Of a stretch of 64,000 nt of DNA, positions 4,688 to 34,560 are shown piece by piece. A model generated the notes under the pieces. That model did no database searches. It was not told the origin of the DNA and saw nothing but the letters and a program-made list of their open reading frames with translations. The stretch's first letter is position 1. Each line of letters begins with the position of its first letter. Made by a program: the position numbers and the translations under genes. Source of the DNA: Clostridia bacterium (GTDB lineage Bacteria; Bacillota; Clostridia; Oscillospirales; CAG-272); assembly GCA_017471825.1 (NCBI GenBank), contig JAFURQ010000013.1, positions 13,096-77,095 of the forward strand, written 5' to 3'.

Positions 4688-6253
4688 TCAAAGCATCGGG
4701 GCAAATATTCTGACCACGGCGCGAACAAACCGCACGAGCAAATTTGTTTTCAGCATATCGGGCGTGATTTCAATAGATTTACCCAGCGTGTCGTCAACGT
4801 CCGCCTTGAGATCGGCTATTGAATCGCAGTTGTACATCCAAACTCCGTTTTCAAAATGGTGGACAAGACTGCGGTAATCAAGATTTATAGTTCCGATCAT
4901 AGCATATTGGTCATCTGCGACGTAGCTCTTGGCGTGAATGAAGCCGGGCTCATATTCGTAAATCCGAACGCCCGCATCCATCAATCGCTTATAAAAGCTT
5001 CGCGTGATGCCAAACACCATCTTTTTGTCGGGAATGTGAGGCACTACGATACGCACGTCCACTCCGCGAAGAGCGGCGCTCTCTATGCTTTGGCAGAGGT
5101 CGTTGTCAATAATTAAATATGGCGTTGTCATATAAACGTAGCGGGTTGCGGCGTTCAGCATATTTTGAATTACGCTCTTACCGACCCTTCGGTTAAAGAG
5201 CGGCTTCGGGCCGTCGCCGAACGGAATCACGTAGCCGTTAGCCCTTACATTCTTCTGCTGAGGATAAAGTACGGCGTCCTGCTTCGGCAATGATTTTACG
5301 TTTATACCGTAGTCGAGCATAAAGAGTCTTGTCAGCTCCCAGACCGCCTCGCCCTCCAGACGAAGCGCCGTGTCCTTCCAATGACCGAAGCGAACGATTT
5401 CGTTGATATATTCGTCTGCGAGATTGACACCGCCTGTGTAACCGATTTTGCCGTCGATGACCGTGATTTTACGGTGACTGCGATTGTTAAATTCACTGTC
5501 TGCATTTCCGCGCAGACGGGAAAACGGCGTGGCATCAATGCCAAACGAGCGAAGTGTTTTTGAATAATCTCCGGGGAGAGTGCTCATACATCCGATATCA
5601 TCGTATACCACGCGTACCGTTACGCCCTCTGCCGCCTTACTCTTGAGTATTTCCAGAATAGAGCCCCAGAACTTTCCTTCCTCTATTATGAAATATTCCA
5701 TAAATATAAATTTTTCGGCGGCTTCGAGATCGGGGAGCATTTGTGCGAGCATATCCTCACCAAGCGGAAAATATGTCTGCTTTGTATTCGTGAACAGATG
5801 CGAGTCGGATATCTCCGTCAGCATTTTCGCCTGCGATGCCGCTACGGGATTTTCCGCTTTAAGATTATTGCTCGGCTCGACACTATCCCTGCTGTAGTTA
5901 TATCTTTTAAGCTCGTCCAAGCGCCGAATGAACTTCTTTTGCAGCTTTCGTGAGTAAAATATGAAATAAAGCATGAAGCCGGCGACAGGCAAAATCAGCA
6001 CGAACAAAAGCCACGGCACCTTGTAATCGGGATTGTCGTCCGAGGATATGATTCTTATCACGCAGAAAATCTCGGTAATCCATGCCGCGATATAAAAATA
6101 AGGTACGAAATAGCAGAGGGCGGCAACTATGCCGATTATTGCAAGAACCTCAAGCACGGTAATGAGCACCGCTATAATATAACGGACGGGAATATAGTTG
6201 TATTCTCTTTCTACGGTTTTATTACCTGCCTTATATTGATACTTCCTTTTCAT
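4688..6253 (-). CDS. cls: Cardiolipin synthase (phospholipase D superfamily)
   Basis: Two HKD motifs (HRKITVIDGKIGYTGGVNL and HAKSYVADDQYAMIGTINLD). Two N-terminal TM helices. About 520 aa, typical for Cls. Confidence 0.9.
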   Translation of the reverse strand: MKRKYQYKAGNKTVEREYNYIPVRYIIAVLITVLEVLAIIGIVAALCYFVPYFYIAAWITEIFCVIRIISSDDNPDYKVPWLLFVLILPVAGFMLYFIFYSRKLQKKFIRRLDELKRYNYSRDSVEPSNNLKAENPVAASQAKMLTEISDSHLFTNTKQTYFPLGEDMLAQMLPDLEAAEKFIFMEYFIIEEGKFWGSILEILKSKAAEGVTVRVVYDDIGCMSTLPGDYSKTLRSFGIDATPFSRLRGNADSEFNNRSHRKITVIDGKIGYTGGVNLADEYINEIVRFGHWKDTALRLEGEAVWELTRLFMLDYGINVKSLPKQDAVLYPQQKNVRANGYVIPFGDGPKPLFNRRVGKSVIQNMLNAATRYVYMTTPYLIIDNDLCQSIESAALRGVDVRIVVPHIPDKKMVFGITRSFYKRLMDAGVRIYEYEPGFIHAKSYVADDQYAMIGTINLDYRSLVHHFENGVWMYNCDSIADLKADVDDTLGKSIEITPDMLKTNLLVRFVRAVVRIFAPML

Positions 6254-6343: not shown

Positions 6344-6613
6344 AGTTAATCTTTTATTTTTTGCTCGAAATTTTCCGATATTTTCTGATTTTAATCGGCG
6401 TTTTTGTGACACGGGGTGGCACCTTCTGACAAAACGGTGAAAAATCCCGCTCTTGCTTGCCTTTCGGATTCAGAGGACTGCACTTAAAAATATAATAAAT
6501 ATATTGCGAAAATATTGAATTTTGTGAAAATGTGTGATAAAATAGTAGTGTATTGCGTTCGGACGCATAAGAAACGCCCGTATGCACAAAATATTAGGTT
6601 AAGGTAAATAAAA

Positions 6614-7912
6614 ATGGTAACGTCAATTGTAATTTGTGCCGTAACCTGTCTTACTATGATACTCAGCGTTCTTTTCTTCCCGACTATCCGTATCGGAAAG
6701 GTTAAGTTAGACAGTTATTGGTGCATCGTGCTTGCCGGTGCGCTATTGCTCATAGTAACCGGGCAGGCGGACATCTCCGTCATCGGTCAGGAGCTTATAT
6801 CCGATTCGGCGATAAATCCGATAAAGATACTCGTGCTCTTCATATCGATGACCATACTCTCAATATTCCTTGATGAGCTCGGATTTTTCCGTCATCTTGC
6901 GAATATCACTCTGAAAAAGGCGAAGACGAGCCAATTCAAGCTTTTCCTCTATCTTTACATCACGGTTTCGGTGCTTACCGTATTCACGTCAAACGACGTA
7001 ATAATACTTTCATTTACTCCCTTTATTTGCTACTTTGCAAAGAACGCAAAGATAAACCCCATTCCCTATCTTGCGGCGGAATTTGTTGCGGCAAATACCT
7101 GGAGCATGATGCTTATAATCGGTAACCCCACCAACATATATTTGGCTACCGCGTATGACATCAACTTCATTGAGTATATGACGGTTATGATTCTCCCGAC
7201 TCTTGCGGCAGGTACCGTTGCGTTTTTGGCGCTTTTCCTTCTTTTCAGGAAGAAGCTCGCAGAGCCGATGACAGGAGAGCCCGAGGAAACCGAAATCGCC
7301 GATAAGCTCTATCTTTGGGTCGGTCTTGCGCATCTCATCGTTTGTACGGTAACGCTGGCTATCGGTTCATATATCGGACTCGAAATGTGGCTTGTATCTC
7401 TTTTGAGCGCGGTCAGCCTGTTCGTTTTCGTGCTTGTGATAGCTCTCGTCCGCAAGAAAGCGCCCGTGGAGCTCGGCGCGTGTCTGAAGCGCGCACCTTG
7501 GGAGCTCACTCCGTTTATACTTGGAATGTTCGTTATGGTTATAGTCCTTGAAAGCAAGGGACTTACGGCGAGCATTGCAACCTTCCTCGGTGACGATTTC
7601 CCTGTATTCAAGTACGGTATAACCTCTTTCCTCGCAGCAAACGTTATAAACAATATACCCATGAGCGTTTTATTCTGCTCGATTATAGAAAACGTGACCA
7701 TAGATGCCACGGCTCCCGTTTTTGCCACTGTTATAGGCTCGAACATCGGTGCATTTCTCACACCCATCGGCGCTCTGGCAGGCATTATGTGGTCGTCGAT
7801 TCTCAAAACGCACGATCTTAAATTCGGTTATCTCGATTTCCTGAAAATCGGTGTTACCGTTGCAATCCCATCTATACTTGCGGCACTCGGCGTGCTTACA
7901 CTTGTAATTTAA
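6614..7912 (+). CDS. ArsB/NhaD-superfamily (anion/citrate-type) permease
   Basis: 432-aa polytopic protein with the GNPTNIYL signature region and the two-lobed hydrophobic layout of ArsB/NhaD/CitMHS permeases. Confidence 0.7.
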   Translation: MVTSIVICAVTCLTMILSVLFFPTIRIGKVKLDSYWCIVLAGALLLIVTGQADISVIGQELISDSAINPIKILVLFISMTILSIFLDELGFFRHLANITLKKAKTSQFKLFLYLYITVSVLTVFTSNDVIILSFTPFICYFAKNAKINPIPYLAAEFVAANTWSMMLIIGNPTNIYLATAYDINFIEYMTVMILPTLAAGTVAFLALFLLFRKKLAEPMTGEPEETEIADKLYLWVGLAHLIVCTVTLAIGSYIGLEMWLVSLLSAVSLFVFVLVIALVRKKAPVELGACLKRAPWELTPFILGMFVMVIVLESKGLTASIATFLGDDFPVFKYGITSFLAANVINNIPMSVLFCSIIENVTIDATAPVFATVIGSNIGAFLTPIGALAGIMWSSILKTHDLKFGYLDFLKIGVTVAIPSILAALGVLTLVI

Positions 7913-7932
7913 TGCATTAGGAGGATACAAAA

Positions 7933-9534
7933 ATGAGCAACGACAACAAAATGACAAACATATATACGGGCTACACCCTCGGTGATCTCGTATCCTATGA
8001 GGGAAGTGAGCCCTACATATTCATAAGCTATTCTCATGCTGATACCGATGAGGTATACTCCTTCTTGAAGTACATAGAGAGGGAAAAATTCAGATTCTGG
8101 TATGACGATACTATGGAAATCGGCGAGGATTTCCGCGAGGAGCTCCGTACCAAAATCGAGGGCTGCAGTGCATTTCTCCTCTTCATTTCGAAGGCATCTA
8201 TGAATTCCAAGTATTGCGGAATGGAGATTATCACCGCATATAAGAACAACAAAAAGATTTACCCTATATACCTTGACGAAAACGTTGAAATCCCCCCGGC
8301 GTTCAAGATGATTCTTGAAAACATACAGCACGTTAAGGGCTATTCCAGCTCAGGAATGGAAAAATACGTACAGAAGCTCATAACCGGACTTCCTATTGAG
8401 ACTATGAGAAGCCTTGAGGTTGAGGGCGACGTTCTTGTTAAGTGCAAGGACGGAAGCGATGCCATTACAATCCCCGGCGGTGTTAGGGTAATCGGCGAGA
8501 GCGCCTTCAAGAACTGTGAAAGACTCGTTAGGGTGAATTTTGGCGAGGAGGTTGAGGTAATTCGTCGCGAGGCATTCAGAGGATGCAAGAGCATAGAGGA
8601 AATCCACCTTCCCAAAAACGTCCGCTTCGTAGGCGACAGTACGTTCCGTGACTGCATAAGCCTCAAAAAGCTCGTCATCGACAACAAGGATATTGAGATC
8701 GGCGAGCGCGCATTCGAAAACTGTGCTCTGCTCTCGGAGGTATCCCTGAGAAATGAGATGAAGGAAATCTACGGCGGTGTATTCAACAGCTGTAAGTCGC
8801 TTGCTCATATAGATCTGCCCGAGATGCTCACGATACTTGGTGAGAGCTGCTTTGCCGACTGTATCGCACTCAAGGAGGTTAAAATTCCCTCCAAGGTAAC
8901 GAAGATAGACGACATTGCCTTCAACGGCTGTATCGAGCTTGAAAACGTCATCCTTCCCGAAAATCTTCTTAAAATAGGAAAGAGCACGTTCAAGGATTGC
9001 TCCTCTCTCAAATCGATTCATATTCCCGCTTCCCTTCTCAGCATTGGTTCGGGGCCCTTCCGCGGCTGTACTAACCTCGAAAGCATTGAGGTTGATCCCA
9101 AAAACCGCGCGTTCAAGTCGGTAGACAACGTTCTGTTCAACAAGAACAAATCGATACTCGTATCCTACCCTCCAAAGCTTCCCGCGGAGGAATACTCCAT
9201 TCCGGACTCCGTCGTAACCATCAGCGACTGGGCGTTCTGCGGATGCACTAATCTGAAGAGAATAGAAATCCCCGACAGCGTATCGGAGATCGGCGAGGGC
9301 GCATTCTATATGTGCGAAAACCTCGAGGAGCTCATCATTCCCGATTCGGTTGTGAAGATTGACGATATCGCATTCCGCGGATGCGTTTCGCTCAAAAGAA
9401 TAGTAATGCCGGACTCGGTAAGAGAATTCGGATGGGGACTTTTCAACGGCGACGGAAAGCTCACCGTTGAATGCTCCGACGATTCCCCTGCCGCAAAATA
9501 TTGCGAGACCAAATATTCGCATCCGGTTGATTAA
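7933..9534 (+). CDS. Cytoplasmic TIR-domain protein fused to 12 BspA-type leucine-rich repeats
   Basis: N-terminus PYIFISYSHADTDEVYSFLKYIEREKFRFWYDD...FLLFISKASMNSKYCGMEI (TIR_2-like). Then 12 repeats of xIGxxAFxxCxxL (LRR_5). GGAGGA RBS. No signal peptide. Confidence 0.85.
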   Translation: MSNDNKMTNIYTGYTLGDLVSYEGSEPYIFISYSHADTDEVYSFLKYIEREKFRFWYDDTMEIGEDFREELRTKIEGCSAFLLFISKASMNSKYCGMEIITAYKNNKKIYPIYLDENVEIPPAFKMILENIQHVKGYSSSGMEKYVQKLITGLPIETMRSLEVEGDVLVKCKDGSDAITIPGGVRVIGESAFKNCERLVRVNFGEEVEVIRREAFRGCKSIEEIHLPKNVRFVGDSTFRDCISLKKLVIDNKDIEIGERAFENCALLSEVSLRNEMKEIYGGVFNSCKSLAHIDLPEMLTILGESCFADCIALKEVKIPSKVTKIDDIAFNGCIELENVILPENLLKIGKSTFKDCSSLKSIHIPASLLSIGSGPFRGCTNLESIEVDPKNRAFKSVDNVLFNKNKSILVSYPPKLPAEEYSIPDSVVTISDWAFCGCTNLKRIEIPDSVSEIGEGAFYMCENLEELIIPDSVVKIDDIAFRGCVSLKRIVMPDSVREFGWGLFNGDGKLTVECSDDSPAAKYCETKYSHPVD

Positions 9535-9544
9535 AGAAATAAAA

Positions 9545-9570
9545 AACGGTATGGTTGATCCCATACCGTT
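9545..9570. terminator. Bidirectional terminator between convergent genes
   Basis: AACGGTATGG-N6-CCATACCGTT flanked by an A-run and a T-run. Confidence 0.75.
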
Positions 9571-9585
9571 TTTTGTATTTTTGAG

Positions 9586-23987: not shown

Positions 23988-26900
23988 TCAATCCTGGTAT
24001 TTTTGAACCATACCGCCTGCAAGACCAATCATCTTGACAGCCTGGATGGAGAACTTATCAGCAACGATGGTAAGCTTCTTCGTCATAACGCCGCGAGTAA
24101 GAACCTTAATTCTTTCTGCCTTCTTTGTTATGAGATGCTTTGCCTTGAGGTTTTCAATGGTAACTACGTCACCGTCCTCATAGTTCTCGCAAATGGTGTC
24201 GAGGTTGATCTCGTAGCACTTGTTGGATTTGGGCTTGAAGCCGGGAGCGCGAGTTACGCTCTCGATAAGCTCGGTTGCCTGAGTGTCGGAAATGATCGTA
24301 TCAGCTTCGGTTGCGTTAACGTTTACAATCTCTTCCTCTGCTACCTGGTGGTCTACAATGTGAACCGCGGGAGCTTCTTCAACTACGGGTTCTTCGATTG
24401 CGGGCTCTTCAACCACAGGCTCTTCGACCACAGGTTCTTCGGCTACGGGCTCTTCAACTGCAGGCTCTTCAACCACAGGTTCTTCGGCTACGGGCTCTTC
24501 AACTGCAGGCTCTTCAACCACAGGTTCTTCGGCTACGGGCTCCTCGACTACGGGAGTCTCGGTTGCAACAGCCTCATCGTCATCGGTCTTGAACTCGCTG
24601 AGAAGATCGCCTACGTTGACTCTCTCAATAATGGTGTTTTCATCAATGGTCATACCGTCGGGAAGAATAACCTTTACAAGATCGCAGTCAACGAGTGCCT
24701 CGGTGCTTTCGTAAGGAAGGTGGTAATCCTCGGTGGGAAGCGCACCCTGCTCTATTCCGTTCTTGCTCATTACTTCATCAATAAGCTCAAACGCATACTT
24801 AAGCGAGCGATCGCTCTTAACCTTAAGCATCATAGGAACCTTATCAAGCTTGGGCTTGTCGGAAACATCGGTGAAGTGATACTTCTCTGCATTGTATTCG
24901 TTAGGATCAAGTCCGAGGTAAACCTGGAACGCACTACCCTTAACGTTAAGCTTAGCGCACTGGATTCTGCCCTTATTGAAGGATTCGAAGTTCCAGCTTG
25001 TTCTTGCCTTAACACCCTTGAAGGAGAGAAGGTAATTCTTAACTGCGGTGTAGTAATCCTGAATCGGAGGCTCTGCCTGAATAAGTCTTGACATGAACGA
25101 GGTTCTGTAACGAACAGGAACAACCACGCCGTTTACACGTCTTACGCCGTCAGAAGCGAAGGAAGCAGCTGCAATTGCTGCAAACGATCCTGCCTCGGGC
25201 TCTTCGACTACGGGAGCTTCCTCAACTACGGGAACCTCTTCAACCACGGGCTCTTCAACCACAGGTTCTTCTTCAACCGCAGGTTCTTCTTCAACCACGG
25301 GTTCTTCTTCAACCACGGGTTCTTCTTCAACCACGGGTTCTTCTTCAACCACAGGTTCTTCTTCAACCACGGGCTCTTCAACCACGGGCTCTTCAACCAC
25401 AGGCTCTTCAACCACAGGCTCTTCAACCGCGGGCTCTTCCTCAACTACAGGCTCTTCCTCAACTACAGGTTCCTCTTCAGTTGCGGGTTCTTCCTCAACT
25501 ACGGGTTCCTCTTCAGTTGCGGGTTCTTCTTCAGCCGCAGGCTCGGTTTCGGGCTCGGTTGCAGGCTCGGTGGGCTCTTCATCGTCACCCTTTCTTCTTA
25601 CAAGAAGGATAATGATGAGGGCTATTATGATAGCAACGAGAATTGCGATAAGGATCCAGAGCCAAGTCCAATCCTTTTCTTCATCAACAACTGCCATATC
25701 TGCTCCGCAGTTATCGCACTTGCCGTCTCCGTCGCTGTCTACGTGATCGGTGCAAGGAGGAGTAGGAGTATCCATATCCTCGCCGCAGTTATCACACTTG
25801 CCATCTCCATCGCTGTCTACGTGATCGGTGCAAGGAGGAGTGGGAGTATCCATATCCTCGCCGCATATATCACACTTGCCGTCTCTGTTGTTATCAACGT
25901 GGCCGGGACATACTGTGGTACCCATATCAGCACCGCAGTTATCACACTTGCCATCACCGTTGTTGTCTACGTGATCGGTGCAAGGAGGAGTAGGCTGGGG
26001 CTCGTCGGTTTCTTCGGCAATCTCAACAATACCGTAAACCGAGAAGTGAGTTGTTTCAAATACCATATAGTCACCGCTGCGTACAGCATCGATAACCTCG
26101 GTTTCGCCATTTTCGTTTACGTAAACGATCTTGAAGGTTGAGTCATCGTTATCGGTTGAGCTTTCGGGAATAAGTATACGTACAACGAATTCATTCTCTA
26201 TGGGAGATTCTGCTCCGTCGAACATAAATTCAATGTCATATGCCGCAACGAGCTTTGCTACAAAGCCTTCATCTGCAAGGTCGGAAACGTCAATGTTTGC
26301 AAGATTTGCAAGCTCGTCAGCTACCTCGAGGTAGTGGCCTGCTGCAATCTTGGGACCGTGTACGGTTACTATAACTATGTAACCGAATGCGAAATAATCG
26401 GAGAATTCATCCGCAGTAATAACCATGTATGCGGTCAGGGAAGCCTCTGTATAGTTGCTTCCTGCGGTGAAGTTAGCTGTAACCTCGTACTCGCCGCAGT
26501 CAATCTGCTCGTTACCAACGTAGCTTACATTGATGAAATCAGGAAGAGTTCCGTTGATAGCTATGCTCTGATACTGACCGTTGTAGTACAATACTGCGCT
26601 GTCGAACGTGATGCCAAGCTCTGCAAGGTATGCGGCAAGGTCTGCACGATCGACCCTCCACTCATAAGTGGAAACGAAGGTTGCGGGGTAATCAATCTCG
26701 TAATTCGGAACAACCGGGAACTCTACGTGAGTATAGTACGTACCTGCATTCTCGGGATCAACAACATTGTTGCCCTCTGCGTCGGACGTAGTCTTGTATG
26801 AGGGTACCACGATATTCTGATACTCGGCGGGAATGCCGCTTATCGTAGGAAGAAGAGTTACGGTCGAGCCGTTGTACACGGGATTTGTGAACTGGTTCCA

Positions 26901-29900
26901 AGCAAGATCGTTAAGAGTTATCTTCTTGGGAGAAATTATCCACTGCTTTTCAACCACAGTGTTCTGATTTCCGAGAGTGTAATTCTTCTCTGCGCTTGCT
27001 ATGAGATGGATGGTAGCAATTGCATTGTAGATGTTTGCATCGGTTGCAGAGTTGCTTCCGGTCTCGTAGGAAACGTCGAGAATGTCTCTCATGCCTGTCT
27101 TGTCTATTTCGATGGTGTGAGTTACACCGGGCTCATAAACGAGCGCGGTATCGGTGTACGCACCGCCGCCGACAATTATCCAATTGTAATTGCCGTCAAG
27201 AAGCACAAGCTGCTTATCAATTGCCCAGTTTACAGTGTAGCTTACAACACCGTCGTCATCCTCGTTACCGCCAACAACGAGAACGTAGTTGGAGTTATTG
27301 AGAGTGATCGTTGCGGTTGCAGTGTAGTTATCACCTGCATCGGTAGCACGGGTCTCGCAATTTGCAAGAGTTACGATTCCGTCAGCAATGTAAGAGGAAT
27401 CAAGTGCCGCGGTGTCGAGATAGAGAACATACTCGGAGTTGTTGTAAACAAGGGGACTTGTAAGATCTGCATAGGGGGTGCCGTTGTATTTCCACTCAAA
27501 GTCAACGTTAATCGTCTTTCTTGCGATAGTGAAGTAAAGTTCCTTCTCGATAGTGGTTTCAACAACGTAGTTATTAGTGTCAACGGGAGTAATAGTAACC
27601 TCTACATAGTAGTTACCTGCATCGGTGGGAGCAGTGGTTCCTATGCTCTCGTAGACTCCGTTGGCATTTGCCTTGTAGTAGTTAACGGTTGCGGTAATGA
27701 TAGTAGCATCGTAAGGAGTAAGCGAGGGTGCCTGCGGATTTCCGTTATAAGTGAAGGAGCTACCGCCCTGCCACTGTATGTCGGAGTTAAGGGTTGCCTT
27801 ATTAACAATCCAATCCTGAGGAGCGAAAAGCTTATACTCGCCGCTTACGGGATCCTTTTCTACTGCGTAGTTGTTAAGAAGCTCGGGATGTGCTGTGAAA
27901 TCAATCGTTGCAGTAGCGGTAACGATACCGTTAGTTGCATTGACGGACTTGTTGTTAGTATAAACAACGGCATTGGCTATATCCTCGGGAAGACCCGCGA
28001 TAGTAACCGTATGCTCTGTCACTCCGTCGTAAGTGAACTCAAAGCCGGTGGTTGCTCTTGTGAGAGCAAGCGTCTGCCAAGAGAACGTCGAAAGGTCTAC
28101 GGGCTTTGAAACGATTGTCCAAGCAGGGCTGGCAGGTGCCGCGGAGCCGCGCCATACGTAGTTGCCCTGATATTCGGACTTAACGGTAACGGTTGCGGTC
28201 GTGTTGTAGGTGCCTGCATCAGTGGTGCCTGCGTTGGTCTGGGTGTGAGTACCGAGAAGAATCTCAAGCTCCTCGGGCACGGTTGCGCTTATGGCATATT
28301 CTCTGCCGTACTCGTACTCTGAGCCGCTGATGCCGGTATCCCATACGATGTCGGCATCAGTATAAACAACGGGGTCGATTACCCACTGCTTTTCAAACTT
28401 ATCACCGTCTGCAAACGCGTAGTTGGGATTGATAATTTCGAACTGAGCGGACAGGTCGTAGGTTGCGGCATTGGTGCCCTTGAACACGTTAGTATCAATG
28501 CGAGCGATGATGAACTGATATTCAGCCTTCACGCTTACGTTAACAACGTGCTCTGCCTTGTTGTACTTATAGGGTCCTGTGTAATCCCATTCAACAGCAT
28601 TATTAACGCTGATTTTCTTGTGGGTTATGGTAACAGCGACCTTATTGGTAGTAAGGGGCTCAAGAACCGTGTCACCGTGCTTAACGGAAATTACAACGTG
28701 GTAATTACCTGTGTCAGCAACGTCGGATATTTCGTACGTGGTACCGGTTGCGCCATCAATAAGAGTGTTATTCTTATACCAAGCGTATGTATAGGTAAGT
28801 ATGGGGTTAATGGGTGTTACAGTCGCGGTAAGAGTGATGCTCTCACCCTCGTTGTATTCTTTTTCTGTTGCGGTTGCTTCAAGGGTTGCCTTGGCATCGG
28901 CGGTAAGAGCGTAAAGCTCTACGTCCTGAGCGGGCATCTCCTTGTATTCGGTGCCGTTTTCGTCAACCCACATAATGATGGGGTCGCCGTTGTAATCGGT
29001 AACACCTGCGAAGAAGTCAATATCAGCGCCTACGGGAAGGAAGCCTTCTCTCTCAAGGTTAGCCGCCGACTTGTCGCCGAGATAGTAGGAAACCTTGTAT
29101 ACGTTATCAAAGTGAACGTCAACGTCAGCATAAACCGAGATAACGGTGTTGTCAAGGAATGCATCTATAAGGTCTGCGAGGGTTTCGTTAGCCTTCTTTG
29201 CCCACGGAACAAGGTCAATGCTAAGACCCTTTTCAGCGTGGAAGTCACCGTTGCCCTTGTAAAGATCTGTGAGCTTGTTGTCCTCAAGGGTCTCGGGGAG
29301 GTAGGAATAAGCCTTAGCAAGAACGTCGAGCGCTCTGTTGTAGTAGTACTCGTACTGCGAAACTTTATTCTTTATACCCTCTTCGGTAAGACCGTCGAGT
29401 CTTTCAAATTTGCTTACGAACTCGCTGTCAAGAATACCGTCGAAATCAACGTAATCGAAGATCTTGAGAAGATCTGCAAAGGTTACGTCGTTTACCATTG
29501 CATAAAGCTCGTCGGGAGTGCTTGTAAACGCCGCAAATACCTTGGTTTTGAGTTCTTCGGGAACCTCGGAGGACTGACAAGCCTTGAGTGCTGCCTCTGC
29601 AAGCTCGTCGGGAACTCTGATGTCTGCTGTGAGAGTGCCGTCAAGGTAGGTTACGTTGAAGTTTCTTGCGAGAATTTCAGCAACCTTCTTAACGTCGTCC
29701 TGATTGCTTCCGAGCTTAAAGGTTACGCTGAACTCGGAGCTTCCGAGCTGAGTATCAAGCTTGAAGTCGTAGGAAAGCTGCATTTTATCAGAGTCCATCG
29801 CTGCAATCTCGTCGAAGGTAGGAAGCTCCTCGATGAGAGTGAGAATAGTTTCCTGAATAAATGCCGCGCCCTTGGGGCTATCACCGTAGAGAAGGAGATC

Positions 29901-30995
29901 GTTAATATAGAGGCCTTCTACAAGGGTGAGAAGCTCAACGTAATTTCTGGGGCTGAACTCATCATTGGAAAGTGCAACGTAGAACTCCTCGTACATATCC
30001 ATGATGTTGGCTTCAATCTCAGCAAGTCTTACGTTTACGCCTGCTTCATCGTATCCGAAAAGCTCGAGATAAGCATCGTCTATGTTGTCGATTGCCTTGA
30101 TTCTGAGAGCGGCATCGGAATACAGGGGTGATGCAAACACCTCGCGATAGTCAGATGCGCTTGCGTTGGCAAGCAGGAGCTTAGCCTCGTCAACAGTACA
30201 GCCGTTTACGTCAGCAACGTACTCAGCGAAATACTCGTTTATGTAATTGTGGAACGAGCCCTTTTCATCAATCTCACCGGTTACGTAAGCCTTATAATCG
30301 GCAATTGCCTCGTCGATATAAGCCTCGGTAAGCTCTCTTTTCTTTTCAGCGATTATCTCCTTAAACTCACCGTCGATTTCCTCGGGAGTGGGACAGTCGG
30401 TGCTGATGAAAATTCTCGTGATGTTTGCCGCTTCAAGAAGAGTGATTACGAAATCAGCGTAAGCCTCAGCCTTTGCATCGTCGGCTATAATATCCTGAAC
30501 GAATTCAAGGTGGGTGTCGTCGTTAGCCACACCGTACTCATTTGCAATGTAAACATCCATTGCATTCTTGAAGAGCACCTTTGTTCTTTCTGTTCTGTCG
30601 GAGGGCATATCGTCACCGAAAAGAGCATCTATGAAATCGTCATAGACTACTTCCTCGGTCACCTCAAGTGCATACTTCAAAATCTGCACAAGGTCCTCGC
30701 GTGTCATCGAAAGGATCGCCTCTGCTTTGTTGGGAGCGACGGTTATAAGGACGTCATTGCCCGAATAACTTACCGTCAACCAATCAAGGCTAAAGGAGCC
30801 TTTGTTCGTGCTGTCATTCGTGTTGTTCGTCGTGGTGCCTCCGGTGGTTGTGCCGGTGGAGGTATTGCTGTTCGCGGAGCCGGACGTTACGACAGCGTCA
30901 TCGCTCGAAGCAGCGGCAATTGTGGTTGCCGATACCGAGAAAAGCAAAACGAAAACAAGCAAGAATGCCAACAGCTTCTTAAATGTTTTTCCCAT
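23988..30995 (-). CDS. Giant (about 2335 aa) single-pass surface protein with cytoplasmic acidic repeats and a uL15-like C-terminal domain
   Basis: Signal peptide MGKTFKKLLAFLLVFVLLFSVSATTIAAA. About 1700-aa repetitive ectodomain including 4x (PPCTDHVD-DGDGKCDNCG). TM helix WLWILIAILVAIIIALIIILLV followed by RRKG. (EEPVV)n tracts. C-terminus INLDTICENYEDGDVVTIENLKAKHLITKKAERIKVLTRGVMTKKLTIVADKFSIQAVKMIGLAGGMV. Confidence 0.85.
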   Translation of the reverse strand: MGKTFKKLLAFLLVFVLLFSVSATTIAAASSDDAVVTSGSANSNTSTGTTTGGTTTNNTNDSTNKGSFSLDWLTVSYSGNDVLITVAPNKAEAILSMTREDLVQILKYALEVTEEVVYDDFIDALFGDDMPSDRTERTKVLFKNAMDVYIANEYGVANDDTHLEFVQDIIADDAKAEAYADFVITLLEAANITRIFISTDCPTPEEIDGEFKEIIAEKKRELTEAYIDEAIADYKAYVTGEIDEKGSFHNYINEYFAEYVADVNGCTVDEAKLLLANASASDYREVFASPLYSDAALRIKAIDNIDDAYLELFGYDEAGVNVRLAEIEANIMDMYEEFYVALSNDEFSPRNYVELLTLVEGLYINDLLLYGDSPKGAAFIQETILTLIEELPTFDEIAAMDSDKMQLSYDFKLDTQLGSSEFSVTFKLGSNQDDVKKVAEILARNFNVTYLDGTLTADIRVPDELAEAALKACQSSEVPEELKTKVFAAFTSTPDELYAMVNDVTFADLLKIFDYVDFDGILDSEFVSKFERLDGLTEEGIKNKVSQYEYYYNRALDVLAKAYSYLPETLEDNKLTDLYKGNGDFHAEKGLSIDLVPWAKKANETLADLIDAFLDNTVISVYADVDVHFDNVYKVSYYLGDKSAANLEREGFLPVGADIDFFAGVTDYNGDPIIMWVDENGTEYKEMPAQDVELYALTADAKATLEATATEKEYNEGESITLTATVTPINPILTYTYAWYKNNTLIDGATGTTYEISDVADTGNYHVVISVKHGDTVLEPLTTNKVAVTITHKKISVNNAVEWDYTGPYKYNKAEHVVNVSVKAEYQFIIARIDTNVFKGTNAATYDLSAQFEIINPNYAFADGDKFEKQWVIDPVVYTDADIVWDTGISGSEYEYGREYAISATVPEELEILLGTHTQTNAGTTDAGTYNTTATVTVKSEYQGNYVWRGSAAPASPAWTIVSKPVDLSTFSWQTLALTRATTGFEFTYDGVTEHTVTIAGLPEDIANAVVYTNNKSVNATNGIVTATATIDFTAHPELLNNYAVEKDPVSGEYKLFAPQDWIVNKATLNSDIQWQGGSSFTYNGNPQAPSLTPYDATIITATVNYYKANANGVYESIGTTAPTDAGNYYVEVTITPVDTNNYVVETTIEKELYFTIARKTINVDFEWKYNGTPYADLTSPLVYNNSEYVLYLDTAALDSSYIADGIVTLANCETRATDAGDNYTATATITLNNSNYVLVVGGNEDDDGVVSYTVNWAIDKQLVLLDGNYNWIIVGGGAYTDTALVYEPGVTHTIEIDKTGMRDILDVSYETGSNSATDANIYNAIATIHLIASAEKNYTLGNQNTVVEKQWIISPKKITLNDLAWNQFTNPVYNGSTVTLLPTISGIPAEYQNIVVPSYKTTSDAEGNNVVDPENAGTYYTHVEFPVVPNYEIDYPATFVSTYEWRVDRADLAAYLAELGITFDSAVLYYNGQYQSIAINGTLPDFINVSYVGNEQIDCGEYEVTANFTAGSNYTEASLTAYMVITADEFSDYFAFGYIVIVTVHGPKIAAGHYLEVADELANLANIDVSDLADEGFVAKLVAAYDIEFMFDGAESPIENEFVVRILIPESSTDNDDSTFKIVYVNENGETEVIDAVRSGDYMVFETTHFSVYGIVEIAEETDEPQPTPPCTDHVDNNGDGKCDNCGADMGTTVCPGHVDNNRDGKCDICGEDMDTPTPPCTDHVDSDGDGKCDNCGEDMDTPTPPCTDHVDSDGDGKCDNCGADMAVVDEEKDWTWLWILIAILVAIIIALIIILLVRRKGDDEEPTEPATEPETEPAAEEEPATEEEPVVEEEPATEEEPVVEEEPVVEEEPAVEEPVVEEPVVEEPVVEEPVVEEEPVVEEEPVVEEEPVVEEEPVVEEEPAVEEEPVVEEPVVEEVPVVEEAPVVEEPEAGSFAAIAAASFASDGVRRVNGVVVPVRYRTSFMSRLIQAEPPIQDYYTAVKNYLLSFKGVKARTSWNFESFNKGRIQCAKLNVKGSAFQVYLGLDPNEYNAEKYHFTDVSDKPKLDKVPMMLKVKSDRSLKYAFELIDEVMSKNGIEQGALPTEDYHLPYESTEALVDCDLVKVILPDGMTIDENTIIERVNVGDLLSEFKTDDDEAVATETPVVEEPVAEEPVVEEPAVEEPVAEEPVVEEPAVEEPVAEEPVVEEPVVEEPAIEEPVVEEAPAVHIVDHQVAEEEIVNVNATEADTIISDTQATELIESVTRAPGFKPKSNKCYEINLDTICENYEDGDVVTIENLKAKHLITKKAERIKVLTRGVMTKKLTIVADKFSIQAVKMIGLAGGMVQKYQD
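24371..24565 (-). repeat. In-frame tandem repeats encoding (V/A)EEPV acidic tract 2 (45-bp super-repeat)
   Basis: GGGCTCTTCAACTGCAGGCTCTTCAACCACAGGTTCTTCGGCTAC is repeated about three times head to tail. Confidence 0.85.
25195..25580 (-). repeat. In-frame 15/18-bp tandem repeats encoding the (EEPVV/EEEPVV)n acidic tract
   Basis: Long run of TTCTTCTTCAACCACGGG / CTCTTCAACCACAGG units. Confidence 0.85.
25695..26000 (-). repeat. Four tandem ~78-bp units encoding PPCTDHVDxDGDGKCDxCGxDM modules
   Basis: Visible both in the protein and as near-identical DNA (GTGATCGGTGCAAGGAGGAGT... three times). Confidence 0.8.
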
Positions 30996-31199
30996 TTTGT
31001 TACCAAACCTTTCCACTATTGTGCGTAATAGTTAAATTAAATTAAGTAAATTATAGCACTCGCGACTAAAAAAGTCAATATAAAAAATAAAAAATGAACA
31101 CCTGTTCGCGCGAACTATGGGAAGTTCACCAAATAAATGTTCATTTTTTTATTCAATTTCACGATTTTTCGCGGTTAGTTATGGGGCGTGTCAAGTTTT

Positions 31200-34100
31200 T
31201 CAACTCTTTTTGGACTTCCTTCTCACTCTGCGAACGAGCTTAACCAAGGCAATCACAAGCACGGGCAGAATAACTACCGCTCCGTAGACTCCGATAAAGA
31301 GCACGGTCACTATAATTCTGAGCACCGAATCGGTTATTATCAAGCCGTCGGGCTGCTCCTTTTCGGGTATCTCGGTGGGAAGATAAAGCGCCTCGTAGAT
31401 TTTATCCTCCGTAACCGCGGTTATAACGGGCTCCCAATCGAGAAATTTGTAATTGTATTCGCTGTCGCTTGCCTTCTTAGGCGCGGTCGGGGGCGTGGGA
31501 ATATCTCCGTAGAAATACTTTTTGACGCTTATGACCTTACCGTCAGCCACGAAGGTCACGGTATAGCTGATACGCTCGTACTCTATTCCGACAGATACGC
31601 CAGAGGCGGGCATTATAAACGTCGAATCGACGATCTCTTCCCTCTCGCCGTTCTCCTTGATGAGATAAACTGAGGTGATTTTAATTCCCACGGGTGCGGC
31701 GTAATCGATGCGAACCCTATCTCCTGCCGAGGCGGCGGACTTGTCTGCGCCAATATAGACCTCATCGGTTTTCATAACGTCGATTGCGTATTCAGTTACC
31801 GCGTGATAGGCAACTCCGCATATAACGCTTACCGTTACCGACGTCGAATCGGGAATCGCTCTTACCGGCACTCTTCCGTCTGCGGTTTCGTAATACATAC
31901 GCATATTTGCCGGATCAGAGAAGGTGTAAGGAAGAGTGAGCACGGCACCTACGGAGACATCAAGTCTTTCTCCGTCAGTACCGTAAAGATTAACTGCAAA
32001 CGAGTAGCCAACGCTTCCCTTCACAGCGGAGGAAACCGACAGTGCGCTAACGCCTGCCTCGCTCATTGCGATAACCTCAGAATAAGAAAATTCAAGGGTA
32101 TAGTTCTTTGCGCTGACGGTAATTCCGCCATTTCCCGCCGCACGGGGTATGAGATGTGACAAATTGAGCTCCTTATCCGGAGAGCGCGACGAATCCACAA
32201 AATATCTTGTGCCGTCAAAAGAAACAAGAGCTCCCGAGCCGTTTGAATACGGGACTATAAATCGCCTTTCAAATTCGGCGGTGAAAAGGTTTTGTGATTC
32301 ATCTGCACTGACAGAGGGGAAATCTCCCTCCACTATCGCGCCGCTGAAATCACGCCAGCCTGCAAAGACGTACATAAAGCTGTCTACATCAGCCTTCTCG
32401 GGCACAACGGGACATACAGGGGTGACTCCAAGACGCTCTCGGGTAACCGTCCTGTTGCCGTTTACAGACCAAGTAACGTCATAGAGCTTATACTCTGCTT
32501 CAAACAATGGGTACAGATTCAGCTGGACTCCCTGACAGTTAACGGACGTCATATCCACGGGATTGCCGTTTTCGTCCTGCCAGCCGACAAAGGTATAGGT
32601 TGCCGAATCGTCCTCGGGCTTTGTGGGAATCATACCCGAAAATTCAACGTAAGAGGTGCGTTCGGCGTTAACCGTGTCAAGTTTTTCGCCGTTTGTGCCG
32701 TAAAAATTTATTACTATTTCGTCTACGTTAAGGAACCTTTTAACTGCAAATGCCTCGAGCGTTATGAGCGCATCGGAGCTTATCTGTGAGCGCTCGGAAA
32801 GCTCGCCGTTTCGGTAAGCGGAAATAACGTCGGTTATCTCCTTCGGCAGATTTTCGGGCGTTGCAATTGAAAACGGAGGCTCAACAAGACGGGGTGCCGT
32901 AGGCCTTTCTACAATCTCGGGAGCATCTCCCGGGGCAGACACCTCCTCCGGCTTTACCGGAGCAAGGACGGGGGTAGGCTTTTGAGGCTCGTCCACGGTG
33001 ACTATCACGGGCTTTTCTACTGCCTGCGGGTAACCGTTCGGAAGCGGCTCGGCATTGTTTTTATCAACTATATAAACCTCTCCCTCATGAATTTTGAGGG
33101 GGGTATCACCGTCGATTCTGTACGTGGAATCAAACAGCGCTGTACCGTCATAATTTGACACGGGGGTGTCCGAAATGGCATTTACCGTGTAATAAAGCTG
33201 TGCTAAAAGTATCTCATATTTCTCTATTTTGTTCTGCTGTCTTATTGCCACCCTGACCTTAGCATTGCGGTAAAGCTTGTCAAGACATTTGAAGAGAAGT
33301 GAGAAATTTTCCTTGAAGGCTTCGTAGTTTAAGGAGTAATAGGCGTACTTATCCTCCTCTTCTGTCAGAGCGAAATATCCGTCAAACAGCTCTCGGAGAT
33401 TTTCGGTTGCAAGTCCCGCCTCGTCAACTACCGCCCCGTCAAGTCCCGTCAGCTCGTTTGCTATGGCATCCTTGTTGGCAAGTACGGTGGTTACTGTGTC
33501 GGTCATTATCGCTCTGTAAAGCGAGCGTTTGTATGACGTGCAATTTCTCTGAATTCCGTCAATGATAGCTATTTGATCCTTGACGGTTGCGTAATTGGCT
33601 ACATATTCATTATATAAAGCAAGGTTAGCGTCGTATTTCTTCTTATCATCGAGATACTTGATATATTCGGCGTGTTTTTTGTTATATACCTCAAGCTCGG
33701 CAAGATATTCCTGATAGATCGCCTCGGCATCCTCGTAATCTGCGTATTCCTTGAGATATTTCTGATATGCTATGTATTTTTCGTCATAGACGTTCTTATC
33801 GGAGATATATTTCTGATAAAGGGCAAGGCGCGCATCGTATTCACGCTTCTGTTCAAGATACTCACCGTAGGACGCCCACAGGGGTGCCTCGCTGTACGTT
33901 TTGTTGAGAAGGCCGTTTACGGTTTTCTGCGCTACGCCGATGCTTGAAGAATACATAACTCTTACGTATTCTTCCCCACCCTCGTCAATATCCGTTAGGG
34001 TGACGGTATATTTTCCGTCGGCGCCGACTGTCATACTGTGCTTCTCACCCGAAACAGTGGCGTAAACCGGAGTCCACTTTATTTTAAATCCGGTATTGGC

Positions 34101-34421
34101 AGTATACTCATATACCCTCGCCGTAACCTTCAGCGATTTCGTCTGCGAATCGTATTCGCTTGTAACGTTGCTCGTGGGGACAAGGGGGCTGTACGTGATG
34201 CTGTCGGCTCCGTATGCCTCAAGATAGCTTCTTTCAGCTTCGGAAAGCTTTATTCCGGTCGAGAGCTCGAGAATATCCGCAGAGCTCAGCGTTTGCTTGC
34301 TCGTCGCGCTCGGGCTTGAATAATCGAGCTTCAGGGCAAGGGCTGATACGCAAAGCGCAGATATTATCACCGCGCAAAGCAAAAGGCTCATTATAGTAAT
34401 CAGAAGTCGTCTGTTCTTCAA
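31200..34421 (-). CDS. Large surface protein with Listeria-Bacteroides (InlB B-type) repeats and C-terminal TM anchor
   Basis: Start at TTG 34421, 6 nt after GGAGGAAG. Signal-anchor MSLLLCAVIISALCVSALA. Motifs YTFVGWQDENGNPV, YVFAGWRDFSG, YKFLDWEP. C-terminal helix + RRVRRKSKKS. Confidence 0.8.
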   Translation of the reverse strand: MKNRRLLITIMSLLLCAVIISALCVSALALKLDYSSPSATSKQTLSSADILELSTGIKLSEAERSYLEAYGADSITYSPLVPTSNVTSEYDSQTKSLKVTARVYEYTANTGFKIKWTPVYATVSGEKHSMTVGADGKYTVTLTDIDEGGEEYVRVMYSSSIGVAQKTVNGLLNKTYSEAPLWASYGEYLEQKREYDARLALYQKYISDKNVYDEKYIAYQKYLKEYADYEDAEAIYQEYLAELEVYNKKHAEYIKYLDDKKKYDANLALYNEYVANYATVKDQIAIIDGIQRNCTSYKRSLYRAIMTDTVTTVLANKDAIANELTGLDGAVVDEAGLATENLRELFDGYFALTEEEDKYAYYSLNYEAFKENFSLLFKCLDKLYRNAKVRVAIRQQNKIEKYEILLAQLYYTVNAISDTPVSNYDGTALFDSTYRIDGDTPLKIHEGEVYIVDKNNAEPLPNGYPQAVEKPVIVTVDEPQKPTPVLAPVKPEEVSAPGDAPEIVERPTAPRLVEPPFSIATPENLPKEITDVISAYRNGELSERSQISSDALITLEAFAVKRFLNVDEIVINFYGTNGEKLDTVNAERTSYVEFSGMIPTKPEDDSATYTFVGWQDENGNPVDMTSVNCQGVQLNLYPLFEAEYKLYDVTWSVNGNRTVTRERLGVTPVCPVVPEKADVDSFMYVFAGWRDFSGAIVEGDFPSVSADESQNLFTAEFERRFIVPYSNGSGALVSFDGTRYFVDSSRSPDKELNLSHLIPRAAGNGGITVSAKNYTLEFSYSEVIAMSEAGVSALSVSSAVKGSVGYSFAVNLYGTDGERLDVSVGAVLTLPYTFSDPANMRMYYETADGRVPVRAIPDSTSVTVSVICGVAYHAVTEYAIDVMKTDEVYIGADKSAASAGDRVRIDYAAPVGIKITSVYLIKENGEREEIVDSTFIMPASGVSVGIEYERISYTVTFVADGKVISVKKYFYGDIPTPPTAPKKASDSEYNYKFLDWEPVITAVTEDKIYEALYLPTEIPEKEQPDGLIITDSVLRIIVTVLFIGVYGAVVILPVLVIALVKLVRRVRRKSKKS

Positions 34422-34560
34422 AACACTTCCTCCAAGGATTTGTATCTTAATAATTAAGTATAACACTATTTAAAGATAAAATCAAGTGGGAAAATGTGAC
34501 ACAAACAGGCAAAAATTTGACACGGATGGGCAGATGCGCGAAAAATTCACATTCGCTCTA

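Follow-up and report, generated by a model that had tools for sequence, protein, structure and literature searches.

A cytoplasmic TIR-LRR protein and its conserved permease neighbour in gut Clostridia: a candidate membrane-linked TIR signalling module

The subject of this report is a gene that encodes a TIR domain fused to leucine-rich repeats (hereafter TIR-LRR), which lies at positions 7933–9534 of a 64,000-nucleotide stretch of a Clostridia bacterium genome (contig JAFURQ010000013.1 of assembly GCA_017471825.1; this whole stretch is termed the window). Its product is a cytoplasmic protein in which a SARM1-like TIR domain is joined straight onto a BspA-type LRR solenoid, and the gene is predicted to be the second of a two-gene operon, behind a gene for a membrane permease. 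A permease of the same superfamily adjoins the TIR-LRR gene in nearly every related locus, across two phyla, and in many lineages the pair is further accompanied by a membrane protein with a C-terminal ryanodine-receptor (RyR) domain. An earlier note on the window, made from its sequence, had presented the gene as a minimal, stand-alone sensor-effector; the near-universal pairing with a permease and the frequent presence of the RyR membrane protein point instead to a multi-component, membrane-linked system. Tentatively, the permease and the TIR-LRR protein are read here as the two-gene core of a Thoeris-like, membrane-linked TIR signalling module.

Architecture and active site of the TIR-LRR protein

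Both parts of the TIR-LRR protein are recognised by Pfam, the TIR_2 family (PF13676) matching residues 29–137 with an E value of 4.4e-19 and a score of 69.6 bits (gathering score 28), and the LRR_5 family (PF13306) reaching 274 bits, such that the TIR motifs and the repeat class given in the earlier note both hold. An AlphaFold2 model built from an alignment of 55 relatives (pLDDT 89.5, pTM 0.78) lays out the chain as a β-α TIR domain at approximately residues 25–152, a linker of only ~ 23 residues, a solenoid running from ~ 177 to 513, and a C-terminal helix. The β-strands of the solenoid recur with a period of 23 residues, and the repeats comprise 13 regular anchors together with one irregular repeat of 36 residues, which bears an inserted β-hairpin at ~ 390–412; in other words, there are some 14–15 rungs and not the 12 repeats originally counted.

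Comparison of the model with the PDB by Foldseek places the SARM1 TIR domain (6o0u, 6o0v, 7qg0) as the nearest solved fold of the TIR part, with target-normalised TM scores of 0.68–0.70 for the isolated TIR chains 6o0u and 6o0v, an rmsd of 2.9–3.7 Å and a sequence identity of 23–26%. The LRR part is matched by 4gt6, 4fs7, 4cp6, 4h09 and 6mlx, with E values of 1e-16 to 1e-7 for all of these but 4h09. These matches are BspA/TpLRR surface proteins, including FAEPRAA2165_01021 (4gt6), BACOVA_04585 (4fs7), PcpA (4cp6) and TpLRR (6mlx), and the same solenoid fold is accompanied by the same 23-residue repeat, ‘IPxSVxxIGxxAFxxCxxLxxI’, and the same insertion repeat, ‘NxxFxSVDGVLFNKxxxxLxxYP’. The known members of this group are secreted, lipid-anchored or wall-anchored, whereas the TIR-LRR protein carries a TIR domain and nothing that would direct its export. 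Indeed, it shows neither a hydrophobic N-terminus nor a lipobox or transmembrane (TM) segment in a Kyte-Doolittle scan (maximum 19-residue score 1.24; 0.6 over the N-terminal 40 residues), commensurate with the earlier note, and scans with Pfam, NCBIfam and PADLOC find no nucleoside triphosphatase (NTPase) family, as that note had also maintained. In NCBIfam the protein gives partial matches to the HupY adhesin, and in Pfam its match to ThsB_TIR is barely over threshold (22.1 bits; gathering score 21.2).

The active site of the TIR domain can be read from a phmmer alignment with solved TIR domains, in which E98, within the motif ‘CGMEI’, pairs with the catalytic glutamate of SARM1 (‘HKEI’, E642) and of flax L6 (‘LMEL’). 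In the same alignment Y33, D58, D59, G64, F67 and Y94 correspond to SARM1 Y568, D594, E596, G601, F603 and W638, these SARM1 numbers being our own, counted back from E642. Y33, D58, D59, G64, F67 and E98 are all invariant among the 55 diverse relatives, with Y94 kept in at least 90% of them, and the sole active-site change among 30 genome-derived copies, three from Actinobacteria included, is one Y94F. Moreover, E98, D58, D59, G64 and F67 are invariant in a set of 55 plus 28 sequences which spans two phyla. The catalytic residues being conserved, the enzymatic machinery of the TIR-LRR protein is therefore under constraint. The candidate catalytic glutamate of the earlier note is thus borne out by alignment and by invariance, and the protein is predicted to be an NAD+-consuming enzyme. 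It differs from SARM1 in having tyrosine in place of W638, in carrying LRRs instead of ARM and SAM domains, and in being a bacterial, cytoplasmic protein.

The permease and further partners

In the window, the permease gene ends only 20 nt before the TIR-LRR start codon (stop codon at 7910–7912), and within this spacer there is a Shine-Dalgarno sequence, AGGAGG, 8 nt ahead of the ATG, which is the separate ribosome-binding site that the earlier note had attributed to the gene; neither a promoter-like nor a terminator-like site was found in the spacer. The only strong terminator of the pair follows the TIR-LRR gene. It is bidirectional, as noted before (at 9545–9570, here extended slightly on both sides), and also serves the convergent GHL6 gene. 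Together these features mark out a predicted bicistronic operon, with the TIR-LRR gene in second place. A fusion of the permease and the TIR-LRR protein by frameshifting or readthrough was ruled out, the two reading frames being different and a stop codon and a ribosome-binding site lying between them.

The pairing extends far beyond the window. When one genome per GTDB species was scanned, 29 full-length relatives of the TIR-LRR protein were found, 26 of them (62–80% identity) in metagenome-assembled genomes (MAGs) of gut Clostridia, labelled as Christensenellaceae, Borkfalkiaceae, Oscillospiraceae or Eubacteriales and taken from hosts that include goat, yak, roe deer, rabbit, chicken and mouse. 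A permease orthologue (63–78% identity) lies immediately upstream and on the same strand in 25 of the 25 Clostridia loci for which an upstream flank is available, and apart from the permease no other real gene is common to these 25 neighbourhoods. The remaining three relatives (47–50% identity) come from the cultured Actinobacteria Patulibacter minatonensis, Gordonia araii and Nesterenkonia alba, in all of which the gene order is inverted, a CitMHS permease lying directly downstream with its start overlapping the TIR-LRR stop codon; in Patulibacter the pair forms a patch of GC content 0.64–0.68 within flanks of 0.72–0.78. A scan of metagenomes, with membership of the family set at 150 bits or more against its TIR profile, gave 40 loci with GC contents of 0.31–0.72, an abundant human-gut lineage among them. 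A permease of the IT superfamily adjoins the TIR-LRR gene in 35 of the 36 such loci with usable flanks, the lone exception (L089) having a different 7-TM protein in the permease slot, and a permease is likewise adjacent in all inspected cases among further places that encode family proteins.

Two types of permease serve the TIR-LRR proteins. The window has type C, whereas most of the 36 metagenome loci have a type-A permease which overlaps the 3′ end of the TIR-LRR gene; two of these loci carry type C, upstream in L082 and downstream in L116. The two types are related at a distance (hhalign probability 97.7% over 288 columns; cross-profile scores of 24–46 bits), and ArsB lies nearer to type C than type A does. 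This linkage has therefore outlived an inversion of gene order, a swap of permease subtype and a transfer between phyla, which is strong evidence of functional coupling; given the inversion and the swap, it is already unlikely that the adjacency is confined to a few lineages by descent. The linkage is specific to the TIR-LRR family of ~ 530 residues, since the distant and much larger TIR-LRR proteins of metagenome contigs L119–L140 (27–37% identity, 800–1,336 residues, with the TIR domain in mid-protein) have no permease next door. A full-length search of representative proteins with the family profile returned only giant multi-repeat LRR_5 proteins. At several loci of other, more distant TIR relatives (L135, L146, L148 and L153) a second TIR gene lies alongside.

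As regards the identity of the window permease, it matches both CitMHS (143.5 bits) and ArsB (93.6 bits) in Pfam, has ArsB 10tp as its best PDB match (97 bits), and shares with the carriers of these families ~ 12 TM segments and the conserved GNPxN hairpin motif. Arsenite efflux by a true ArsB was considered and rejected, since the scores of the NCBIfam ArsB models (154, 135 and 132 bits) lie far below their respective cut-offs (457, 760 and 415) and no ars genes were found near the permease. On its sequence, the permease belongs to the wider CitMHS/ArsB superfamily only, from whose known carriers it also differs in that two distant subtypes partner TIR-LRR proteins. The gene calls at one locus (L041:8667–9979, GCA_022800235.1) split the permease into pieces of 111 and 341 residues; sister genomes with an identical TIR-LRR protein have an intact permease of 437 residues, such that the split is a frameshift or an assembly error.

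A third protein is found beside the pair in many lineages. This protein, here termed RyR-TM, is 520–960 residues long and has three to five TM helices at its N-terminal end; a TrkA_N-like region is weakly recognised, and an RyR domain (PF02026) forms the C-terminal end. Its gene is adjacent in 16 of 19 representative loci outside the window's clade, including all five distinct loci of the actinobacterial type, and the three cultured Actinobacteria carry the full three-gene cassette. Five loci of the window's own clade (L004, L005, L013, L014 and L021) also have it next to the pair, and L018 holds a remnant. By hhalign, the low-GC versions are homologous to the actinobacterial ones (probability 96.9% over 503 columns). 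The family profile matches solved RyR R12 domains (E = 2.7e-17) and, at ~ 1e-9, structures from bacteria that are termed ‘putative ryanodine receptor’. A rough neighbour-joining tree, midpoint-rooted and without support values, nests the window's clade within lineages of the three-gene kind, which suggests that the two-gene form is derived.

A 2026 preprint reports that PF02026 RyR domains bind the TIR-made cyclic ADP-ribose (cADPR) isomers 2′cADPR as well as 3′cADPR at nanomolar affinity, the ligand being held by H75, W78 and H100 of RyDEP, which are conserved through the R12 family (PMC13232231). The RyR-TM proteins conserve the motif EHxRW...K.HPxLxP(Y/F), in which the H..W...H residues correspond to these three ligand contacts. 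RyDEP itself, an anti-defence enzyme or sponge of phages, is small and soluble, whereas here the RyR domain ends a large bacterial membrane protein encoded beside a TIR gene. In this regard, the RY12 domain of RyR1 has been described as an ADP sensor, and prokaryotic homologues, putative channels included, have been proposed as nucleotide sensors (PMC13642953).

Further genes accompany the cassette at some loci. At six of them a giant protein of 1,100–1,600 residues is encoded upstream (L083:33–4862, L101:2492–6841, L105:463–5022, L107:126–4613, L109:51–3503 and L112:8–3358), which has N-terminal TM helices where its N-terminus is complete and, in Pfam, only weak transglutaminase-like and putative metallopeptidase matches; it may be a fourth component. 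In L015 (Oscillospiraceae MAG SIG487) two extra TIR genes lie directly upstream of the permease/TIR-LRR pair, at 4895–5809 (304 residues, TIR_2 with a C-terminal part of no known family) and 7108–8457 (449 residues, TIR_2 with 12 MORN repeats). The latter is another TIR-repeat architecture without an NTPase, and the stacking resembles that of Thoeris loci with multiple thsB genes.

Selection, known systems and rival readings

Selection on the cassette was estimated by the Nei-Gojobori method from two close pairs of loci, as synonymous divergence (dS) and the ratio of nonsynonymous to synonymous divergence (ω). For pair 1 the whole TIR-LRR gene gives a dS of 0.61 and an ω of 0.108, the permease 0.61 and 0.073, and the neighbouring rtcB gene 0.74 and 0.158; within the TIR-LRR gene, ω is 0.055 for the TIR domain, 0.024 for the x-positions of the IGxxAFxxC loops and 0.20 for those of the β-strands. 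Pair 2 (L042 and L081, proteins P0113 and P0444, with TIR-LRR proteins 93% identical) gives a dS of 2.1 and an ω of 0.017 for the TIR-LRR gene and 1.4 and 0.079 for the permease, against a dS of 0.39–0.67 and an ω of 0.05–0.15 for five flanking housekeeping genes. Across the pairs, ω of the TIR domain is 0.008–0.055. The synonymous divergence of the pair 2 cassette is 3–5 times that of its flanks, which suggests that the two genes were replaced as a unit by recombination.

Variation within the solenoid is unevenly spread. Among orthologues the most variable positions are the x-positions of the canonical LRR β-strand (entropy 2.2–2.5 bits), at offsets +7, +8 and +10 from the conserved phenylalanine, which coincide with the strands of the AlphaFold2 model. 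The x-positions of the IGxxAFxxC loops, by contrast, differ from repeat to repeat but are conserved between orthologues (0.3–0.7 bits); cross-phylum identity is 51% for the loop positions and 22% for the strand positions, and within clusters of 90% identity 24% of strand x-columns are polymorphic, against 2% for the loops and 6% for the TIR domain. Positive selection on the concave face was considered and rejected for, although polymorphism is enriched there, the ω of pair 1 indicates relaxed constraint; pair 2 gives no concave-face estimate, its synonymous sites being saturated.

Among known systems, it is those that convert NAD+ into a signal with a TIR enzyme, an immune principle common to bacteria, plants and animals, that offer the closest likeness; the known bacterial versions, Thoeris and others, set a small TIR protein beside an effector that is either soluble or pore-forming. 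With Thoeris the cassette shares a TIR domain with an intact catalytic glutamate beside a non-TIR partner, the membrane setting of several effectors (TM proteins or, in type X, an ion channel), the stacking of several TIR genes beside one partner, as in L015, and, in the RyR partner of related loci, a fold shown to bind Thoeris signals. It differs in that the window TIR bears a BspA-type LRR solenoid of ~ 340 residues, in that the constant partner is a secondary transporter of the ArsB/CitMHS kind without a known signal-binding domain, and in its setting outside defence islands, its very strong purifying selection and its weak ThsB matches. Toll-like receptors and plant TIR-NB-LRR (TNL) receptors also combine LRRs and TIR in a single polypeptide, but the TIR-LRR protein, unlike Toll-like receptors, has no TM helix and carries its TIR at the N-terminus rather than the C-terminus, while it lacks the central NACHT or NB-ARC P-loop NTPase of STAND/NLR proteins (Avs, bNACHT, TIR-NLR and plant TNL). 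Its LRRs are moreover of the bacterial TpLRR subtype, and the combination of TIR and LRR probably arose here independently of Toll-like and TNL receptors.

The LRR-TIR, permease and RyR-TM cassette appears to be an undescribed variant among TIR signalling systems. A non-exhaustive search of the literature found no description of the cassette, nor any TIR protein tied to BspA/LRR_5, a permease, CitMHS or TrkA/RyR. In its main text and available supplements, a systematic survey of TIR signalling in bacteria, which started from defence-island enrichment, sets out Thoeris types I–XI and 29 predicted configurations, TM and ion-channel effectors included, and there makes no mention of LRR, RyR, permease, CitMHS or ArsB (10.64898/2025.12.03.692087). 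The TIR-LRR family would probably fail such a starting point. Indeed, it is its housekeeping location and strong purifying selection that would tend to make screens of defence islands miss the module.

The mechanism that we propose for the Thoeris-like module runs as follows. The LRR solenoid would keep the TIR domain poised and control its self-association on a conserved cue or on the state of the membrane partner, either through a conserved ligand or by docking to the membrane partner with the conserved loop face. Once assembled, the TIR domain, with its SARM1-like active site, would turn NAD+ into an ADP-ribose-derived (ADPR-derived) product of the cADPR-isomer type. In the three-gene form, which is probably ancestral, this product would act on the RyR-TM protein, whose R12-type domain we infer to be its receptor wherever that protein is present; in every form it would act on, or pass through, the ArsB/CitMHS-type permease, as effector or conduit. 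The outcome would be a changed flux of ions or solutes, leading to growth arrest or adaptation. As to the role of such a module, we lean slightly towards abortive-infection-type defence over physiological signalling. Defence is favoured because of the precedent of other prokaryotic TIR enzymes, all characterised examples of which, to our knowledge, act in defence or virulence, and because of the transferred actinobacterial copies, the stacked TIR genes of L015 and the recombination signal of the cassette; core-like distribution, housekeeping context and very low ω speak for physiology.

A number of observations weigh against this Thoeris-like reading. There is no RyR-domain gene in the 64-kb window: the RyR-TM protein with its cADPR-binding fold adjoins many related loci but not the window pair, whose permease has neither a known sensor domain nor a recognisable soluble ligand-binding domain. 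Two features are atypical of phage-defence genes, namely the strong purifying selection on the TIR-LRR gene (ω of 0.02–0.11 overall) and its stable housekeeping flanks, since not only is the window cassette set among housekeeping genes but one exact protein, P0113, occurs in 138 collection blocks and lies in every inspected place between ychF-argS-udg and acpP-leuBDC-ilvD-ilvNB. The sampled loci show no association with defence islands and no conserved defence neighbour, and searches of plasmids, phages and IMG/VR viral contigs yielded no member of the family. No PADLOC system fits, the ThsB-like TIR matches reaching at most 26.7 bits and nothing matching the permease or the RyR protein; the NCBIfam model ThcB4, for which the cut-off is 220, gives 11.8. 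In addition, the sequencing runs that contain the sequence are all DNA runs of gut metagenomes, and co-transcription of the pair is a prediction. The innate-immune receptor logic put forward in the earlier note therefore stands as regards the union of TIR and repeats without an NTPase, and does not as regards the fast-evolving sensor and the defence-island context that such a logic would lead one to expect.

Several of these same observations would fit a physiological regulator, in which the TIR-LRR protein is a regulatory subunit of the permease, coupling transporter state or a metabolic cue to NAD+ turnover or a second messenger in ion or solute homeostasis, with no part in phage defence. 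This explanation is possible, if on balance unlikely. The ω of the TIR-LRR gene equals or lies below that of the flanking leuB, leuC and rtcB genes, its housekeeping position is stable and free of mobile elements, and its distribution within one gut Clostridia clade appears vertical; moreover, a repeat-specific loop face conserved across phyla fits a fixed endogenous partner, and the TrkA_N-like and RyR nucleotide-sensing modules of the third protein are typical of regulated ion transport. On the other side are the precedent of characterised TIR enzymes and the stacked TIR genes already mentioned, the patchy distribution among Actinobacteria which, with the atypical GC content of the Patulibacter patch, indicates horizontal transfer of the cassette, and the excess dS of the pair 2 cassette, which suggests allelic replacement. 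The self-contained device of the earlier note, in which the LRRs recognise a ligand of phage or foreign origin, NAD+ is depleted by the TIR and the cell dies, the permease being irrelevant, would accord with the NTPase-less union of TIR and repeat sensor, the intact catalytic residues and the variable, within-species polymorphic concave face. That face is, however, relaxed and not positively selected, and a permease adjacency which persists through inversion, subtype replacement and phylum transfer is very unlikely for an irrelevant neighbour, all of which makes this account improbable.

Little credence is likewise given to a metabolic role coupled to transport, in which the permease would move NAD+, NMN or an ADPR derivative and the TIR glycohydrolase would process or make it, for salvage or as an exported signal, with the LRRs as a docking scaffold only. 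ADPR-type molecules are anions, and small anions are what IT-superfamily carriers transport; the genes are tightly coupled, overlapping translationally at many loci, and a conserved non-concave LRR face would suit docking. A scaffold of ~ 340 residues with many repeat-specific conserved positions is nevertheless excessive for docking alone, the RyR partner points to the sensing of a signal and not to salvage, and no linked NAD-salvage genes were found in the neighbourhoods surveyed. That the protein is instead released as a Tcp-like TIR factor of virulence or commensalism, its BspA-type LRRs binding host or microbial surfaces, is most improbable. As a rule LRR_5 proteins act as surface adhesins, and it is cell-surface proteins that match best in structure; the partial HupY matches are of an adhesin, and the organism dwells in the gut. 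Yet the protein lacks a signal peptide, lipobox and TM segment, unlike the two other LRR_5 proteins of the window, which are lipoproteins (lipoboxes ...FTLASC and ...ALSGC), as the earlier note had rightly said; the same cassette occurs in Patulibacter and Nesterenkonia isolates, which we take not to be host-associated; and the obligate permease and RyR-TM partners would make no sense for a secreted effector.

Should the Thoeris-like reading prove true, it would add to TIR signalling an LRR-bearing TIR protein without an NTPase switch, a secondary-transporter partner kept across phyla and, in the three-gene form, a membrane protein with the RyR fold newly shown to bind TIR-made 2′cADPR and 3′cADPR. 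Through the host-encoded RyR partner, the long-debated relation of cADPR to ryanodine-receptor domains would become directly testable in simple bacteria, experiments being feasible given the abundance of the family in human and animal gut metagenomes and the three cultured Actinobacteria, and the module may represent TIR signalling outside classical anti-phage immunity. By analogy, and as a decidedly unlikely extension, the cassette might be a bacterial counterpart, possibly a precursor, of the animal SARM1/CD38-cADPR-ryanodine-receptor axis, with a TIR-made messenger, sensing by an RyR protein and ion flux through the permease, acting in physiology or stress and not in defence alone; the two-gene form of the window would in that case be a pared-down variant, with the signal received by the permease itself or by an RyR protein encoded at an unlinked site.

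Other features in and around the window

The features of the cassette in the window are collected in Table 1.

Table 1. Coordinates of the permease/TIR-LRR cassette and its signals in the window
Feature	Position	Strand	Basis
Two overlapping σ70-like promoter candidates, likely operon promoter region	6469..6543	+	Consensus matches
IT-superfamily (ArsB/CitMHS-like) permease, 432 aa, ~ 12 TM segments	6614..7912	+	Pfam, hydropathy
Shine-Dalgarno AGGAGG of the TIR-LRR gene	7919..7924	+	Sequence
TIR-LRR_5 gene, 533 aa, predicted cytoplasmic	7933..9534	+	Open reading frame, Pfam, AlphaFold2 model, hydropathy
TIR domain, aa 25–152, SARM1-like	8005..8388	+	TIR_2 match, Foldseek, residue conservation
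Codon GAG for E98, predicted catalytic glutamate	8224..8226	+	Alignment with SARM1 and L6; invariance
BspA/TpLRR-type LRR_5 solenoid, aa 176–513, ~ 14–15 rungs of 23 aa	8458..9471	+	Pfam, AlphaFold2, Foldseek
Bidirectional intrinsic terminator closing the operon	9539..9576	.	16-bp stem (5 GC pairs), 6-nt loop, T-run on both strands

The two promoter candidates ahead of the permease are TTCAGA-16-TATAAT (6469–6496, with 10 of 12 matches) and TTGAAT-17-TAAAAT with an extended TG (6515–6543); both are consensus matches only, of which the count is no greater than in shuffled sequence.

Some genes near the cassette, in the window and elsewhere, recall defence functions. At 4688–6253 on the minus strand of the window there is a cardiolipin-synthase-type protein (PLDc_N and two PLD domains), which matches DrmC in PADLOC with up to 65 bits; the match comes through its generic PLD domain and probably does not mark a defence gene. 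A GmrSD_C protein and DUF4407 lie near one cassette of actinobacterial type (L049:5604–6371), and RtcB with a weak match to a Schlafen group 3 helicase lies downstream of one Clostridia cassette (L080:4883–5602), neither of these being recurrent. Carriage of the TIR-LRR gene by a plasmid, phage or prophage was considered and rejected, plasmid and phage records giving only generic TIR matches of below 40% identity and IMG/VR giving only LRR matches; the closest TIR in the phage collection, in an unannotated human-faecal ‘Bacteriophage sp.’ contig (MT836178.1:8023–8415), is 36% identical over residues 21–150 (E = 3e-18) and falls outside the TIR-LRR family.

Elsewhere in the window, the two LRR_5 lipoproteins adjoin each other at 44571–47024 and 47332–53145 (~ 817 and 1,937 residues, lipoboxes LASC and LSGC), the former scoring 308 bits against the LRR profile of the TIR-LRR family, and the minus strand carries two very long open reading frames, at 23988–31016 (2,342 residues) and 31200–34466 (1,088 residues).

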